NCBI GenBank assembly: GCA_963829355.1
Contig: CAWHHZ010000008.1
Coordinates: forward strand, 97,075 to 161,074
Length of the DNA stretch: 64,000 nt
Origin: an uncultured Acidobacteriota bacterium
GTDB lineage: Bacteria > Acidobacteriota > Thermoanaerobaculia > Gp7-AA8 > JAHWKK01
Reading direction: 5' to 3'
In this document: positions 23,796 to 29,701 of the stretch, piece by piece
Layout: each line of letters opens with the position of its first letter
How positions within the stretch are numbered: the stretch's first letter is position 1
The notes under the pieces: generated by a model
Databases searched by the model: none
Told to the model about the DNA's origin: nothing
What the model saw: the letters and a program-made list of their open reading frames with translations, nothing else
Made by a program: the position numbers and the translations under genes

Positions 23796-24031
23796 TCGAA
23801 AGGACGAAGCCGAAGGTGCTCATTGGGTGACGCACCTCCCCGGCCTGCCTCGAAACCGGAACCGGCCGGGACGTTCGCGACGCGTCCTCACTCGAGCGCA
23901 AGCTCGATCGCCTTTTCCAGATCCTCGTCGCTTCCCGCGGCGACGCCAGCAATCGTTCGTGTGACTTCGACGTGAGGGATCAGACCCACCCGCTGAATTG
24001 ACGTCCGTCGGCATGGCGGACATCCATAGCG

Positions 24032-24302
24032 GTGAACATGATCAGATTCTCACCGGGCAGCCTCGTGAAGCTGACGTTCCCGTTGGAGCCGGAGGTCGAT
24101 GACCTCGATCGAGCGGCGGCTGACGAAGCCGTTCTATCGGATTCATCGTTCCACGATCGTCAATGCAGACGCCGTTCACGAGGTCGAAACCGATCGTGCC
24201 GGCACGACCGCGGTGATTCTCAAAGACGGTACCCGACTCAGCTCGAGTACCTCCTACCGCGACAGCGTGGAGGCAATGCTGGAGGATTCAACTAGCTTCT
24301 GA
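24032..24302 (+). pseudogene. LytTR DNA-binding domain remnant (C-terminal fragment, receiver domain absent, internal frameshift)
   Basis: ORF 24099..24302 has 'TKPFYRIHRSTIVNADAVHEV...ILKDGTRLSSSTSYRDS' (a LytTR core). The upstream 'SLVKLTFPLEPEV' is in another frame. There is no room for a receiver domain before the stop of the preceding gene at 23795. Confidence 0.5.
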
Positions 24303-24312
24303 GTGGCCGTAG

Positions 24313-25238
24313 ATAGGGGTAGGGAGAGGCCCTTAGTTAGGCCTCCCCCTCCCTCCGAACCGGACGTGCGGATCTCCCGCATCCGGCTCTCCGGTTGGTG
24401 AGTTACCTGCGATAGGGCTGTCGGACGTTCGCGTGTTCTGCGCTGAGGATGAACAGACCGCGATCGGCAAAGAAGCGGTTGGGCCAGCGATAATGGTCGT
24501 GTCCTCGTCCACTGCGACGGCGGTGAGAGCGTCGGAACTTGCGTCTGCTCAGCACCGCCCGAAGGCGATACCGAACGTACTGATCAAGCTGCGTGAACGC
24601 ACCGCGTGAGCTGTGTTTGAAGAACGCGAACCATCCTCGCAGGACCGTTGCCTCCTTTGACCCCTCTTTCGAGGGCTTCCAGCATGCGTTCGGTCCAGAC
24701 TCGGGCTTCGACCCATGGCCATCGGCCTCGGATCTCTCCGCCGCGCTCTAGGTCTCCCACTGCTCGCGGTTGGTCTTGCTCTTGTCTGTCTGTCACGCAT
24801 TCACCTTCCTGCCCTCCTTTGCTCCACGCCCGTTACGACGCTTCCCAGCTCTTATGAGGGCTCTGACTTCCCGCCCACGGTCATCCGCCGCGGCGGGGGA
24901 TCCCCGGTTCACTACACTCGAACTTCCTACCGTTCTGTCTCCAACCACACCCATGACTCCCTCGGTCGCTTTCTCTTCACGCTCTTTCCCTCAGCGCCAG
25001 GGCTCTCCCTTAGGGCCGTTTCCCGTCTGCACCCACCGGGTCTTCGGGCTTCGGACAAACCCCGCAGCCTCGCCAGTCATAAATGCCGAATCGAGTTTCT
25101 CTCGTACGGACCGGTAGTTCACCTCCAGTTGCTCTCCACCCCGCCTTACGGCGACGCAGTTACTTTCGGTTGTCAGCCAGTGAGCGGCTGGCTGGAAGGG
25201 ACTCTCACCCTTCTGTTCAAGTGCGCTCCCGAGCGCAC
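24313..25238 (-). mobile_element. group II intron (about 926 nt) with internally deleted intron-encoded protein
   Basis: On the minus strand, the 5' end is GTGCG at 25238. Domain V is GAGCCGGATGCGGGAGATCCGCACGTCCGGTTC at 24389..24357. Domain VI is a helix GGGAGGGGGAGGCC/GGCCTCTCCCTACCCC with a bulged A at 24320, 7 nt from the 3' end '...CUAU' (24313). The IEP remnant at about 24440..24796 has 'RVWTERMLEALERGVKGG' (RT domain-0 N-terminus) joined directly to 'RGWFAFFKHSSRGAFTQLDQYVRYRLRAVLSRRKFRRSHRRRSGRGHDHYRWPNRFFADRGLFILSAEHA' (domain X / C-terminus), with the RT core missing. Confidence 0.75.
24357..24389 (-). ncRNA. group II intron catalytic domain V
   Basis: 33-nt hairpin with the AGC triad and two-nucleotide bulge. 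It matches the bacterial DV consensus GAGCCGUAUGCG...CGCACGUACGGUUC at 30 of 33 positions. Confidence 0.8.
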
Positions 25239-25359
25239 GGGGTCGGACGTCCTCGTCCGATGAGTCCCGGCGTCCTCGCCGAGGACCTCATGCTGCGCAG
25301 CGCCAACTTACGCGGAGCCGGGGACGGCTTCGCGCCATCGGACGGGGACGTCCGACCCC
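25239..25359. other. long hairpin (24-bp stem, 73-nt loop) immediately 5' of the intron insertion point and 17 nt downstream of the TPR gene stop
   Basis: GGGGTCGGACGTCCTCGTCCGATG (25239-25262) is the reverse complement of CATCGGACGGGGACGTCCGACCCC (25336-25359) with one mismatch. Confidence 0.7.
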
Positions 25360-25375
25360 CACTGCGGGCTGCACC

Positions 25376-27574
25376 TCACCACTGCGCCGCGAGATCGGGA
25401 CGGCCGAGACTTCGGTAGGCCTCGGCGATCATCGCTTTCGTCGAGGGTGATGGGTTGGAGGCCGAGAGGGCACGCATCGTTCGCTCGGCCTCGCCGGCAT
25501 TTCTCTGAAGAAGCTGAATCGCGGCGAGTCGGATGTACGCTTCCCTGTTCTGAGGGAACTCGTCCGCTTCCCGGCGGAACGCTCCCTTCGCCTCGTCGAG
25601 CCGGCCCTGGCGCGCAAGGATGTCTGCTCGGGTGAACGATTCACCAGCAACCCGATCTCCCGGCGTCGACTCCAGTTGTTCGAGGATTGCGAGCGCCTCG
25701 TCGAGACGACGCTGCGCCACCAGCGCCTGCGCGCGGACGACGAGTGCATCATCCCGCGTGGCGCTGTCGGCGAGTGCCGCACCGAGGGCCCCGTCCGCTT
25801 CGGCGGCTCGACCGATCCCGATCAGAGCACGTGCTCGCACCAGCGCGGCACTCGACGGATGCGCATCTTCGCGCGAGATCAGCGTGATCGAGTGCCTCCT
25901 GGAACTGACCCAGCTTCAGATACACCTCTGCAAGAGAGAGAGCTGTTCCCGGGGCGAGCAGCGGTGAAACGTCGATGGTTCTGCGGTACGCATTGACCGC
26001 GTCCTCATACCGGCCCGACAGATCGTACGCGCGGCCGAGAAGGGTCCATGCGTCCGCAAAGGCCGGATTTCGCGACAACGATCTTCTCGAGCGCGACGAC
26101 GGCGCTCGCACTATCGCCCTCCCGGATCGATCGGGTGGCCACCATGTAGGCTTCCAGATCACCGATACGCTCCTTTGGATCTGGCAGGGCGCCATTCGAG
26201 CTCGCACCTCCGCCACCGAGATACCCGAGCGCCGAGAGCTTCGAAGCTTCTTCAGACGAAATCGCGGTCGGAGCGGCGAGCGCGCGATCATACGTCAGCG
26301 AGCTCGTCCCGCATCGACGCGTACGTCCTTCGCTCGCCCGCGAGGATGTTGCGGGCCTCGCCCGGATCGCTCGACAGATCGTACAACTCCGGCGACGGTG
26401 CCTCGATGTAGTGGAACGTCGTGCCGACGAGCGACGCGAGATCGCTCCACCCGAGATGGATGCGCGGGTACATCGTCTCGCTGTAGATGCGACGTTCTTC
26501 AGCGTCGTCATCAGTGAGCAACGAATGCCCTGCGACCGCGGATGGATCGTAATCGAGACCGGCAAGCGTCGCGATCGTGGGAAAGATATCGATCAGTCCG
26601 ACGGGCCGTTCGACTCTGGTCGCCGCCTGCTCGGAACCGGCAAGTTTGACGAACAGCGGAACGTGGATCGCTTCGCGGTAGAGAAAGATTCCGTGCTCGC
26701 TCTCGCCGTGATCACCGAGACCCTCTCCATGATCGGACATGAAGATGATCGTCGCTCCGTCGTAGAGACCGCTCTGGCGGAGATGGTCGAGGAACCGCCC
26801 CACGTAGGCATCTGCCGTGGCAATTTCGCCGTCGTATGGACGGTCGGCGTACGCTTTTGCAAACGGCTCCCCCGGCTCGTATGGGGTGTGAGGCTCGAAC
26901 AGGTGGACGAACAGAAAGAATTGGTCGGAGCCAACTGAGTCGATCCACTCGAGTGCGGACGATACCGTGAGGTCACCGCTTCGCTGGATCTCTCCCACGA
27001 TCGCACCGGGCATACTCTCCATCTCGTCGTCGTAGTGGTCGAACGCGGCTCCGAGACCGGTCTCCTTCCGCAGTACGTATGCCGACACGGCTCCCCCGGT
27101 CATGTATCCCTTTTTCTTCAGCAACAGAGGCAGCGACGGCATCGTCGGATCGAAGCGGTATCCGAGGTTGTTGCGGACTCCAGTCGCCGCGGGGAGCCTG
27201 CCCGTGAGCATCGATACGTGCGAGGGGAGCGTGAGCGGGACCTGCGAGTACGCATTCTCGAACACGATCGAGTCGGCAGCGAGCGCATCGATCGCAGGCG
27301 TCTCGACACCCGTTGCTCCGTAGACCGGAAGATGATCGGCCCGCAGAGTATCGACAGAAATGATAATGACCGGACCGGAGGCGGCAGGCGAGGACACGTC
27401 CTCGCGGCCACAGGCGGACGTCAGGAGAAGCAAGAGGACGAAAGATGAAAGATGAAAGATGAAAGATGAAGGTCGTGGCACTGCGGGGATTTCATTGCTC
27501 ATCGTTATGCCTTCGCTCATAGCTCCGCCTCCATCGCTCCGCTCCGTCCTTTCATCGTTCATCTCATCGTTCAT
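25376..27574 (-). pseudogene. sulfatase-like hydrolase/transferase fused to TPR repeats (paralog of 27614..29701). The sulfatase domain ORF is intact and the TPR half is broken by about 3 frameshifts
   Basis: ORF 26288..27574 is the sulfatase domain ('IIISVDTLRADHLPVYG'). The linker and TPR regions align to the intact paralog but are spread over ORFs 26005..26565, 25749..26291 and 25376..25840 in three frames. Confidence 0.55.
27437..27471. repeat. (GATGAAA)x5 heptamer array, lying inside the signal-peptide codons of the minus-strand sulfatase gene
   Basis: The reverse complement encodes 'PSSFIFHLSSFV' of the ORF 26288..27574 N-terminus. Confidence 0.85.
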
Positions 27575-27628
27575 CTTTCATTCGTTCATCGTTCATCGTT
27601 CATCGTTCATCGTTCATCGTTCGTTCAT
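27550..27628. repeat. (CGTTCAT)n heptamer array (about 6 perfect units plus degenerate units)
   Basis: Direct reading. It overlaps the stop codon of 27614..29701 and the 5' region of 26288..27574. Confidence 0.85.
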
Positions 27629-29701
27629 CACCTGCCGTGCCTCGGCGGCGAGTGAGCGCATTTGCGGATCGTCGTTGGTCTCGATTGCCTGGTTGAGTAC
27701 AGCATCTGCCTCAGTGGCACGTCCCTGTGCGCCAGTGACAAGCGCCAGGTTCACCCATGCCATCCGATGATCGGGAAACGCGGTGACCTCCGCACGGAAC
27801 GCCTGCTCAGCTTCCGGTGTGCGCCGGAGCTGGAGAAGTGCCTGACCGCGACGGAACTCGAGCTCTCGAATCGGAGGCTTCGGACCGCTGGCAGTCTTCG
27901 CTCTCACCTGATTGAGAAGATCGAGCTCACGCGCGATTTCGCCCCGTTCATGCGCGATCAGAGACAGGAGCATGAGCGGTTCCGTACGCGAGGAATCCGC
28001 CGCCGCCGATGCATTCGCTGCTCGTTCGGCGGCCTCGGTATTGCCCCGGGCCATTTCGATTCGCGCGATCAGATCGTTCGCGATCGCAGGTGCGTAATCG
28101 AGCGCGAGCTCGGCATACGTCCTCGCCTCGTCATAACGTCTCATCTCGTACGTGACTGAAGAGAGCGCGAGCGCTGTTTGCGGATTCCCCGGCGACCGCT
28201 CCATCTGGGTCTCGAGGGCGCTGAGGGCCGTCGCGTAGTCTCCCTTCTTTCGGCTCGCCGACGAGATCAGACCCCACGCCTGCAGAAAGTCGGGATTCTC
28301 GGCGACGATCGAGCGTCCGATCTTCAGAGCCTGTTCGAGGTCGCCGCGCTGGAACGCTCCGGCCCCTTTCCCGAACTCAGTGAGGAGACCGATCTTGTCT
28401 TTTGGATCGGGTCGAGAGCCATCAGATGCGGCACTTCCACCACCGAGGTATCCGAGCGACTCGAGCTTCGCCAGATCCTCCGGATCCGCGACGGCTGGCT
28501 CCGAGAAGGGATGCGCAGCGACCGTCGAACGAAGCTGTTCGCGCATCGCCGCCACGAGCCGCCGCTGCTCCGCGGCAATGTTGTCCCGTTCCGCCGGATC
28601 GCGCTGGTAGTCGTAGAGCTCGACCACCGGTGCATCGATCAGGTGGTGACGATTGTCGATCTTCGAGAAGAGCTCGCTCCAGCCGTAGTGGAGCCGTGGA
28701 TAGAACGTCTCGCTGTAGATCGCGCGGTCCGCGGGGATCTCTCCGAGCAGATCGATCCCCTCCGGCTGGTCCGGCGGCTCGATTCCCGTCAGCGCGAGGA
28801 CTGTCGGGAAGATGTCCGTCAGAGACACCGGAGCAGCGACCGTCTCACCCGCGCGTCGATTACCGGGGAGCTTGACGAGAAGAGGAACCTGGATTGCCTC
28901 CCTGTAGAGAAACACGCCGTGCTCGAGCTCCCCGTGGTCCCCGAGTCCTTCTCCGTGATCGGACAGGATGACGATGAGCGACTCCTCGTAGAGGCTCTTT
29001 TCCCTGAGGAAGTCGAGAAACCGGCCCACGATCTCGTCCGACCGCGCGACCTCGCCATCGTAGGCATCGTCGACATCGGTGGCCCACGGTTCAGGCGGGG
29101 TGTATGGATAGTGAGGTTCGTAGATGTGGAGAAACCCGAAGATCTTCCGACCGGTGACTGAATCGATCCAGCCTTCCAGTTTCCCTGCCGACTCCTCGCC
29201 GTTTCTCTGCCACGAGCTGATCGTATCGACCGGCGCCTCGGTCATCTCGTCGTCGTAGAACGAAAAGCCGCGAGAGATGCCGGTATCGCTTCTCAGGACA
29301 TAGCTCGAGACCGCGGCTCCTGTCTGATAGCCACTTCGCTGAAGGATCTCCTGAATCATTGGGAGATCCTCACCGATCGTATAGCCGATGTTGTCGCGGA
29401 CACCGTGCCTGTACGGCTGGGCTCCGCTGAGGATCGTCGTGTGCGATGGCAGGGTCATCGGGACGCTGCTGAATGCACGCTCAAAGAGGATTCCATCGGA
29501 ACGGAATTGATCGATTGCCGGAGTCGCGACGGCGTCGTATCCGTAGACTGGAAGACGATCCGATCGAAGCGTATCGATCGAGATAATGAAGACCGGCGGC
29601 GGCTCGATCACCGTGGCAGGCGCTGGGTCTTCGCCGCCACAGTTGATCAGCAAGGCGAGGATGCTCAACGGCAGGAGCAGAGTGGACAGGCAATTTCTCA
29701 C
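27614..29701 (-). CDS. sulfatase-like hydrolase/transferase with C-terminal TPR repeats (intact copy)
   Basis: 695 aa, GTG start. Lipoprotein-like signal ('LLINCGG'). Alkaline-phosphatase-superfamily N-terminal domain. C-terminal roughly 280 aa are TPR-like. Confidence 0.75.
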   Translation of the reverse strand: MRNCLSTLLLPLSILALLINCGGEDPAPATVIEPPPVFIISIDTLRSDRLPVYGYDAVATPAIDQFRSDGILFERAFSSVPMTLPSHTTILSGAQPYRHGVRDNIGYTIGEDLPMIQEILQRSGYQTGAAVSSYVLRSDTGISRGFSFYDDEMTEAPVDTISSWQRNGEESAGKLEGWIDSVTGRKIFGFLHIYEPHYPYTPPEPWATDVDDAYDGEVARSDEIVGRFLDFLREKSLYEESLIVILSDHGEGLGDHGELEHGVFLYREAIQVPLLVKLPGNRRAGETVAAPVSLTDIFPTVLALTGIEPPDQPEGIDLLGEIPADRAIYSETFYPRLHYGWSELFSKIDNRHHLIDAPVVELYDYQRDPAERDNIAAEQRRLVAAMREQLRSTVAAHPFSEPAVADPEDLAKLESLGYLGGGSAASDGSRPDPKDKIGLLTEFGKGAGAFQRGDLEQALKIGRSIVAENPDFLQAWGLISSASRKKGDYATALSALETQMERSPGNPQTALALSSVTYEMRRYDEARTYAELALDYAPAIANDLIARIEMARGNTEAAERAANASAAADSSRTEPLMLLSLIAHERGEIARELDLLNQVRAKTASGPKPPIRELEFRRGQALLQLRRTPEAEQAFRAEVTAFPDHRMAWVNLALVTGAQGRATEADAVLNQAIETNDDPQMRSLAAEARQVMNER

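Follow-up and report, generated by a model that had tools for sequence, protein, structure and literature searches.

The question raised by this locus is how a group II intron can keep its ribozyme after losing most of the protein that should serve it, and why it stands directly beside a long hairpin. The locus is located in a 64,000-nt stretch of the genome of an uncultured Acidobacteriota bacterium (GenBank assembly GCA_963829355.1, contig CAWHHZ010000008.1, positions 97,075 to 161,074; the whole stretch is called the window hereafter). The element in question is 926 nt long and runs on the minus strand from position 25238 to 24313. A first, sequence-only reading had described it as a group II ribozyme with remnants of an intron-encoded protein (IEP). 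Our analysis leaves hardly any doubt that it is a hairpin-targeting group II intron with a deleted open reading frame (ORF). With high confidence, it is a non-autonomous, ORF-deleted copy of a hairpin-targeting, IIC-like group II retroelement whose IEP has no endonuclease domain.

The 3' end of the element (24313-24391, minus strand) matched the covariance model RF00029 (Intron_gpII) with 58.2 bits (gathering score, 40; E = 7.5e-9), and no other Rfam match at gathering thresholds was obtained in the whole window. The termini, GUGCG at 25238 and CCCCUAU ending at 24313, agree with the group II pattern of GUGYG and AY. Domain V (DV), 33 nt with an AGC triad and a 2-nt bulge, is located at 24389-24357, and domain VI (DVI) at 24356-24313; both were placed from the Rfam match and the fold, which is canonical for the two domains (−52.6 kcal/mol, z = −6.0). 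The position of DV and the bulged A of DVI had been read correctly from the letters; the branch-point A at 24320 is the eighth nucleotide counted from the 3' end, which agrees with the 7-8 nt of group II introns. For the 5' part of the ribozyme, a consensus structure was calculated with RNAalifold from 20 introns. In the window, domain I (DI) spans 25232-24904, domain II (DII), a short hairpin, 24902-24865 and domain III (DIII) 24861-24811. The consensus of DI-DIII contains 85 pairs, and compensatory double changes were observed in 63 of them. The window copy forms 75 of the 85 pairs, and L001, an intact relative described below, forms 72. None of the differences between the two disrupts a pair of L001, and three of them are full compensatory swaps. 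These results show that the ribozyme RNA of the window copy carries no sign of decay. The region can also be seen by a plain composition scan, in which the minus strand is strongly enriched in purines over DI-DIII at 24700-25150 (on the plus strand, GC skew falls to -0.33 and AT skew to -0.40), as is typical of a structured ribozyme.

Relatives were collected by searching genomes, one for each species, for the conserved N-terminal peptide of the IEP. This search gave 47 loci (designated by L and a number) from Acidobacteriota, Verrucomicrobiota (Opitutales), Desulfobacterota, Planctomycetota, Chloroflexota and others. The closest ones, L001-L004, are four copies in one Acidobacteriota metagenome-assembled genome (MAG), and L001 is a 1873-nt intron (L001:4560-6432) with an intact 448-aa IEP. 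Global alignment with L001 gave the extent of the window intron, which equals an L001-type intron minus one clean gap of 953 nt. Its first 18 and last 13 nt are common to L001-L004, and the flanks of these four copies diverge precisely at GTGCG and precisely past CCCCTAT. Furthermore, L001 is located at the end of a tandem repeat of about 275 bp, the first copy of which is a natural empty site (4283|4284). The empty copy reads ...CACCCGGCCCA|CTCGGCAGG... and the occupied second copy reads ...CACCCGGCCCA|intron|CTCGGCAAG.... The exon pairing was found in the same alignment. The terminal loop of a DI hairpin (stem 25069-25067 / 25055-25053) presents GGGGU at 25063-25059 as the exon-binding site EBS1, which is complementary to the intron-binding site IBS1, ACCCC, the final 5 nt of the 5' exon (25243-25239). 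At the corresponding alignment column (column 207), the 5-mer was fully complementary to the intron's own exon end in 17 of 20 diverse introns, and the next-best column reached 3 of 20. L001 pairs UGGGC with exon GCCCA where the window pairs GGGGU with ACCCC. Because the covariation of EBS1, the divergence of the flanks and the empty site of L001 are three independent lines, the 5' splice site is fixed at 25238, and the ligated exons are predicted to read ...GACGTCCGACCCC|CTACGGCCACTC, with 25239 joined to 24312. The group II ribozyme with its 5' end at 25238, as it was first proposed, is thus borne out by the Rfam match above the gathering score, the covarying helices of DI-DIII, the canonical folds and the EBS1-IBS1 pairing. 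The ribozyme of the window copy (DI-DIII, DV and DVI) is structurally complete and matched to its exon. The repeat beside L001 (L001:4007-4559, also in L002 and L004) is tandem or dispersed; it ends in a target hairpin and starts with a DV-like string, CCGGTTCGGA.

The 953-nt gap corresponds to nucleotides 591-1543 of the L001 intron, and the junction is located between 24648 and 24647 on the minus strand (GGAGGCAA|CGGUCCUG, also written GGAGGCAA|CGGTCCTG). The deleted segment encodes IEP residues ~51-367, i.e., the reverse transcriptase (RT) blocks RT0-RT7 and most of domain X. The reverse course, in which the ORF-containing relatives would have gained the 953 nt by insertion, is very unlikely, because RT0-RT7 are encoded there in frame. 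What remains of the ORF forms domain IV. Its 5' part (24796-24648) starts with GTG at 24796 and encodes residues 1-50, which are 88% identical to the L001 IEP by tblastn. Its 3' part (24647-24403, with the stop codon at 24405-24403) encodes a C-terminal remnant of 77-80 residues (24647-24406), which corresponds to L001 residues 368-444, i.e., the end of domain X/GIIM and the tail, with 74% identity, and which matches the Pfam GIIM profile with 27.9 bits (cutoff, 23). With these matches, the IEP-like fragments are not chance similarities. Because 953 is not a multiple of three, the reading frame changes across the junction, and the two remnants stand in different frames. This, and the loss of the RT core, had been recognized in the sequence-only reading; however, the N-terminal piece has 50 residues rather than about 35, and, measured against L001 as the closest full-length relative, 953 nt are missing rather than about 1.2 kb. 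The dN/dS value of the C-terminal remnant against L001 was 0.29 in the IEP frame and 1.1-1.2 in the other two frames, and its 80 codons contain no indel or stop. Most of the divergence thus arose before the coding capacity was lost, and the deletion is young when compared with the separation from L001. No significant microhomology was found at the window junction, and none was consistent across the junctions of other ORF-deleted copies. The identity to L001 is 90-93% before the gap and 80% after it. To explain this difference (92% versus 80%), an origin as a mosaic or by recombination was considered but is not needed, as L001 is the closest relative on both sides and the 5' side is constrained by RNA structure.

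The 5' splice site directly follows a palindromic element of 121 nt (25359-25239, minus strand) in the 5' exon, between convergent genes. Its inverted-repeat arms (25359-25336 and 25262-25239) are 24 nt long and 96% complementary, the loop is 73 nt, and the element folds at −91.2 kcal/mol (z = −6.6). The long hairpin was therefore noticed correctly; the gap from the stop codon of the preceding ORF (25376-25840) to the 5' arm is 16 nt, not 17. Each 24-nt arm is itself a 7-bp hairpin (TCGGACG-NNNN-CGTCCGA), and the local hairpin of the 3' arm, UCGGACG-AGGA-CGUCCGA, is located at 25260-25243. In nearly all loci of the lineage that allowed the 5' splice site to be placed, this site is 1-4 nt past a GC-rich stem-loop with a stem of 7-11 bp and usually a loop of 3-4 nt, and the 3' arm of the window with its CCCC looks just like this usual target. 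The earlier comparison with terminator-targeting introns thus holds in the sense that the association with hairpins is a property of the whole lineage and not a coincidence of this site. Because the lineage targets short stem-loops and each arm is one, the 24-bp stem, as two inverted copies of a target-type hairpin, is probably incidental. The palindromic element occurs nowhere else in the window, and we rejected the ideas that it is a repeated element or, as it has no T-tract, a canonical terminator. On the plus strand, the other arm likewise forms a 7-bp hairpin followed by CCCC (25336-25360, the site ending at 25359), a mirror-image potential target that is unoccupied.

A difference in target choice was also seen among the relatives. 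In copies with A instead of C as the first nucleotide of the 3' exon (L022, L030, L036, L042, L050, L072, L133 and others), the 5' exon always ends in TCC and EBS1 always begins with GGA (GGAU or GGAC), with the exception of L162, the 5' exon of which is not reliably placed. These copies form a target-specificity subfamily.

The class of the lineage was examined at the levels of protein and RNA. The IEP of L001 carries RVT_1 and GIIM, and no endonuclease domain. Its best matches among the solved IEPs are all from group IIC (7uim, 4e-65; GsI-IIC 6ar1, 8e-62; also 5hhl and 5hhj), versus 2e-44 for the IIB TeI4h protein and 4e-44 for the IIA protein LtrA. Two relatives without a DI insertion, L016 and L006, scored 53.9 and 46.5 against RF02001 (group-II-D1D4-3), above its gathering score of 32. 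PDB entry 4FAW is a structure of an Oceanobacillus iheyensis IIC intron. This entry has been assigned to RF02001 (PMC3965019). Among the IIC-defining traits listed by Toor et al. 2006 (PMC1702495), the lineage shows the lack of EBS2, a stem-loop at the position of IBS2, the small size and the AGGAA motif. With regard to EBS2, no alignment column pairs with exon positions -6 to -15 in more than 4 of 18 introns. AGGAA is located at 24928-24924 in DI of the window, where GGAAG is a lineage-conserved, unpaired stretch and presumably the epsilon-prime region. Like the group IIC introns B.h.I1, O.i.I1, GsI-IIC and E.r. IIC, the lineage inserts right after a stem-loop in intergenic DNA (PMC1702495, PMC4424553), and it shares with them the short DII and DIII and an IEP composed of RT and X. 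We call the lineage IIC-like, as it behaves as a IIC intron and is a putative member of class C.

Loss of the ORF is not confined to the window. Two short proteins found in a first protein search (P0002 and P0006) fuse the N- and C-terminal ends of the IEP. When the L001 IEP was mapped onto the genome loci, L013, L014, L015, L016 and L017 were found to be ORF-deleted (such copies are called minis below) and L012 partly deleted; L005 is interrupted by an insertion sequence (IS), and several more are frameshifted. In an independent metagenome scan with the conserved segment of the WTERMLEAL codons, at least 120 loci were obtained, and among the matches listed, 79 were full length and 11 were true minis, about 12% of the evaluable loci. 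Overall, about 12 distinct junctions were observed, that of the window included. On the left, the breaks are at IEP residue 50 in seven events, that of the window among them, and otherwise at 58/59, 74, 80 and 82; on the right, they are at 368 (window) and 406-421. As both searches required the WTERMLE region, the retention of the N-terminus (codons 34-41) is partly an effect of ascertainment, which accounts for neither the clustering of the right breakpoints nor the retention of the ORF-closing helix described below. A nucleotide-precise hotspot right after the GVKGG codons, suggested by the genome set, was rejected because the left breakpoints in the metagenomes vary; the claim is therefore softened to junctions bounded by the ORF-closing helix, with the mode at the base of the helix. 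Selection for an in-frame mini-protein was also rejected, since in-frame and out-of-frame junctions are mixed.

Some minis of the lineage have clearly moved after losing the ORF. L104, L106 and L107 have a common junction and are located at three different hairpins; over 862 nt, L106 and L107 share 99.7% identity, although their flanks are unrelated. L051, L133 and L159 likewise have a common junction and different exons and sites. Because near-identical minis with the same junction occupy unrelated sites, minis of this lineage were mobilised in trans, and the idea that a ribozyme without its maturase has to be served in trans is supported for these sister copies. In addition, L014:4965-5240 is a mini of the L016 type with the same junction, in which DI-DIII are absent and the end of DVI is damaged; this copy looks 5'-truncated, as expected of incomplete reverse transcription.

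To describe the part of domain IV that the minis keep, natural minis were folded, and covariation was counted on 'virtual minis' made from 21 full-length introns. In the resulting model, 82.8% of the cells were paired, versus 42-60% with the partners slid, and the covariation score was 0.225, which 0 of 500 shuffles reached, versus about 0.1. The model has four elements. First, the M-L-E codons form a long-range stem with UCCAGU, a segment close to the stop codon. Second, a hairpin is located within the A-L-E-R-G codons. Third, the ORF loop is closed by a helix in which the V-K-G-G codons (GUSAAAGGAGG) pair with the N-x-F-F codons (CCUUCUUU) and in which G-C to C-G swaps were observed. The fourth element is a 3' hairpin. 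In the window, the ORF-closing helix is formed by CAAAGGAG (24659-24652) and CUUCUUUG (24475-24468), and the 5' part of domain IV contains the WTERMLEAL codons at 24697-24677 and the hairpin CCCUC-GAAAGA-GGGG at 24675-24661 (all minus strand). All of the distinct junctions, including that of the window, are located inside the loop of the ORF-closing helix. The helices, which are built from the first ~50 and the last ~30 codons and are kept by all minis, probably form a scaffold for binding of the IEP.

The IEPs of the lineage carry an N-terminal extension of about 48 aa (…RWxWVE..VWTERMLEALERGVKGG) before RT0, encoded at L001:5001-5150 and, in the window, at 24796-24648. Its start codon, GUG or AUG, is located at a fixed distance of 6-8 nt past a Shine-Dalgarno-like AGGAAGGUG at the end of DIII. 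The codons of this extension overlap the conserved covarying helices of domain IV, and the segment is thus dual-coding. Two relatives with disturbed ORFs may be described here. In L005:1385-2917, the IEP ORF is broken at residues ~294/293 by an IS insertion of about 1.6 kb, which encodes a 439-aa transposase-like protein. In L007:4918-5689, the 5' segment of the N-terminal/domain IV region is present twice, in inverted copies that face each other, which suggests a rearranged or head-to-head fragment.

From these observations, the following history can be proposed. A full-length parent or a mini would have reverse-spliced into single-stranded DNA beside the stem-loop downstream of a sulfatase-TPR (pseudo)gene and would then have been copied by reverse transcriptase, as established for IIC introns (PMC4424553, PMC12584367). 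A single 953-nt deletion removed the 'ORF loop' of domain IV and spared the flanking helices. As a speculation, such deletions may arise by template jumps of the reverse transcriptase across the ORF-closing helix; jumps of this kind would fit the variable take-off and the preferred landing, and selection for the IEP-binding scaffold explains the bounds equally well. Because the window copy encodes neither maturase nor RT, its efficient splicing and movement would depend on an IEP that a related full-length intron of that cell provides in trans, as is established for the ORF-less introns of Thermosynechococcus elongatus (PMC2882425) and implied by the near-identical sister minis at unrelated sites. 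We think it slightly more probable than the opposite that the copy can still be spliced or mobilised in its host. More tentatively, and with rather less than even confidence, the element may be an active member of a widespread, so far undescribed group of SINE-like (short interspersed nuclear element) 'mini-IIC' retroelements, in which deletions across a codon-built helix, plausibly from template jumps, would repeatedly yield trans-mobilised ORF-less introns of 780-930 nt with the IEP-binding scaffold retained.

Several observations speak against a non-autonomous but serviceable IIC-like intron. The DV triad was AGC rather than CGC in 127 of the 127 lineage copies examined, DV has 33 nt and a distal stem of 4-5 bp, the distal stem of IIC being 2 bp shorter, and the covarying EBS1-IBS1 pairing is 5 bp versus 3-4 bp in IIC. 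Covariation of EBS3-IBS3 was sought in the intron alignment, no convincing column was found, and EBS3 was not located. The window copy stays below every Rfam D1-D4 gathering score, with 18 bits for RF02003 and no match to RF02001. No T-tract was found in any hairpin examined, so the label 'terminator' is putative and rests on the position; the target hairpins of the lineage also often overlap IBS1, unlike those of group IIC. There is no IEP-encoding intron within the window, so a helper is putative. A metagenome scan for the 5' end of the sub-lineage gave 0 matches, and thus no second copy with the window junction and no orthologous empty site; the only empty-site paralogue found is that of L001. 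Finally, the upstream gene is a frameshifted pseudogene, which makes transcription through the intron uncertain.

The structural points would fit a separate, possibly undescribed lineage of hairpin-targeting introns that is not class C and resembles IIC in behaviour only. Besides the AGC triad, the length of DV and the 5-bp EBS1, this is favoured by the ~48-aa extension with its domain IV helix codons, which is absent from the solved IIC IEPs (the PDB matches begin at query residue ~53; the window copy itself has lost the ORF), and by the failure of most relatives at RF02001, some of them matching RF02003 weakly. However, the best PDB matches are all IIC IEPs, L016 and L006 pass RF02001, and the missing EBS2, the stem-loop at the IBS2 position, AGGAA and the small ribozyme are those of IIC. 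We therefore regard a separate lineage as an unlikely, though serious, alternative to the IIC-like assignment.

The functional points raise the doubt that the element is an immobile, unspliced fossil, decaying between two pseudogenes in a cell without a helper IEP. Both neighbours are indeed degenerate, and neither an IEP in the window nor a second copy of the junction was found. On the other hand, the ribozyme is undecayed, with 75 of 85 pairs, perfect DV and DVI and five of five EBS1-IBS1 pairs; the 80 codons of the ORF remnant are free of frameshifts and stops, which points to a recent deletion; and sister minis are demonstrably mobile. A dead fossil thus seems doubtful to us, roughly a minority chance. 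It is very improbable that the gap is a mis-assembly or a collapsed repeat in an intron that is really full-length. Multi-copy introns do assemble poorly in MAGs, and the neighbouring gene is frameshifted; but similar minis that differ in their junctions are present in many independent assemblies and among the called proteins (P0002 and P0006), the long ORFs nearby, of 1190 aa and 695 aa, are intact, and the junction has no repeat able to drive a collapse. A host function of the ribozyme and hairpin, e.g., in 3'-end processing or as a stabilising element, would suit the location at a gene 3' end beside a very stable structure and can practically be set aside, as the upstream gene is a pseudogene, the target preference of the lineage fully explains the placement, and there is no conserved synteny.

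The non-autonomous IIC-like intron of the window has precedents. ORF-less bacterial group II introns served in trans and IIC introns targeting hairpins are both already known. In Thermosynechococcus elongatus, the ORF-less introns TeI3a-t are mobilised in trans (Mohr et al. 2010, PMC2882425). As in TeI3a-t, the deletion in domain IV left N- and C-terminal remnants of the IEP, the ribozyme is intact with good EBS/IBS pairing, and sister minis of the window lineage were mobilised in trans. Unlike it, TeI3a-t is IIB/CL, depends on endonuclease-containing IEPs and goes back to a single deletion event in one genome, whereas the window lineage is IIC-like with about 12 independent deletions across several phyla, and the helper of the window copy is putative. 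The ORF-less dnaN introns of Trichodesmium, with the RIR intron maturase, and other bacterial ones also depend on a related IEP in trans (PMC4424553, PMC12584367). In contrast to the window intron, which is intergenic and follows a hairpin, the Trichodesmium dnaN introns are inside housekeeping genes, and their splicing is essential.

Bacterial ORF-less group II introns have been described in reviews as rare and short-lived (PMC4424553), and T. elongatus, the exception that has been studied best, is a IIB lineage with one deletion event (PMC2882425). The window element alone is an ordinary, though well-preserved, example; the lineage as a whole, IIC-like and distributed over several phyla, has lost the ORF about 12 times, and its minis, about one copy in eight, are demonstrably mobile. 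The searchable literature gave no account of frequent independent ORF loss, of its bounds at a coding helix or of mobile minis in a IIC-like clade; earlier reports of ORF-less IIC introns are possible, and no priority is claimed. If this picture of the lineage holds, its minis are natural 'delta-ORF' designs, from which one can read what a hairpin-targeting intron has to retain of domain IV, and they provide models of intron proliferation with a second independent example of a driver and passenger pair like LINE (long interspersed nuclear element) and SINE. If the tentative mini-IIC reading is also true, ORF-less introns are common, not rare, in soil and sediment bacteria.

Both neighbouring genes were examined. 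The convergent ORF on the plus strand at 24099-24302, the stop codon of which is 10 nt from the 3' splice site, matches positions 32-97 of the 98 positions of the Pfam LytTR profile only. It had rightly been taken for a remnant of a LytTR gene, as it is N-terminally truncated and has neither the first ~31 profile positions nor a receiver domain, and no recognisable domain was found in the ~300 nt upstream of it (23796-24098). The idea derived from this neighbour, that the intron entered an already rearranging region, was dropped as unneeded, because the hairpin and IBS1 sufficiently explain the insertion site, though both neighbours are degenerate. On the other side, an ORF at 25376-25840 precedes the intron as described earlier, but this 'TPR ORF' is the last piece of a frameshifted sulfatase-TPR gene (25376-27574, minus strand), a paralogue of the gene at 27614-29701. 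In a tblastn search, its pieces were found in the frames -1, -2, -3 and -1 and span 25418-27412, and the intact neighbour encodes 695 aa on the same strand. The paralogue is either a pseudogene or the result of local indel errors, and in the sulfatase part it shares 51% identity with the gene next to it.

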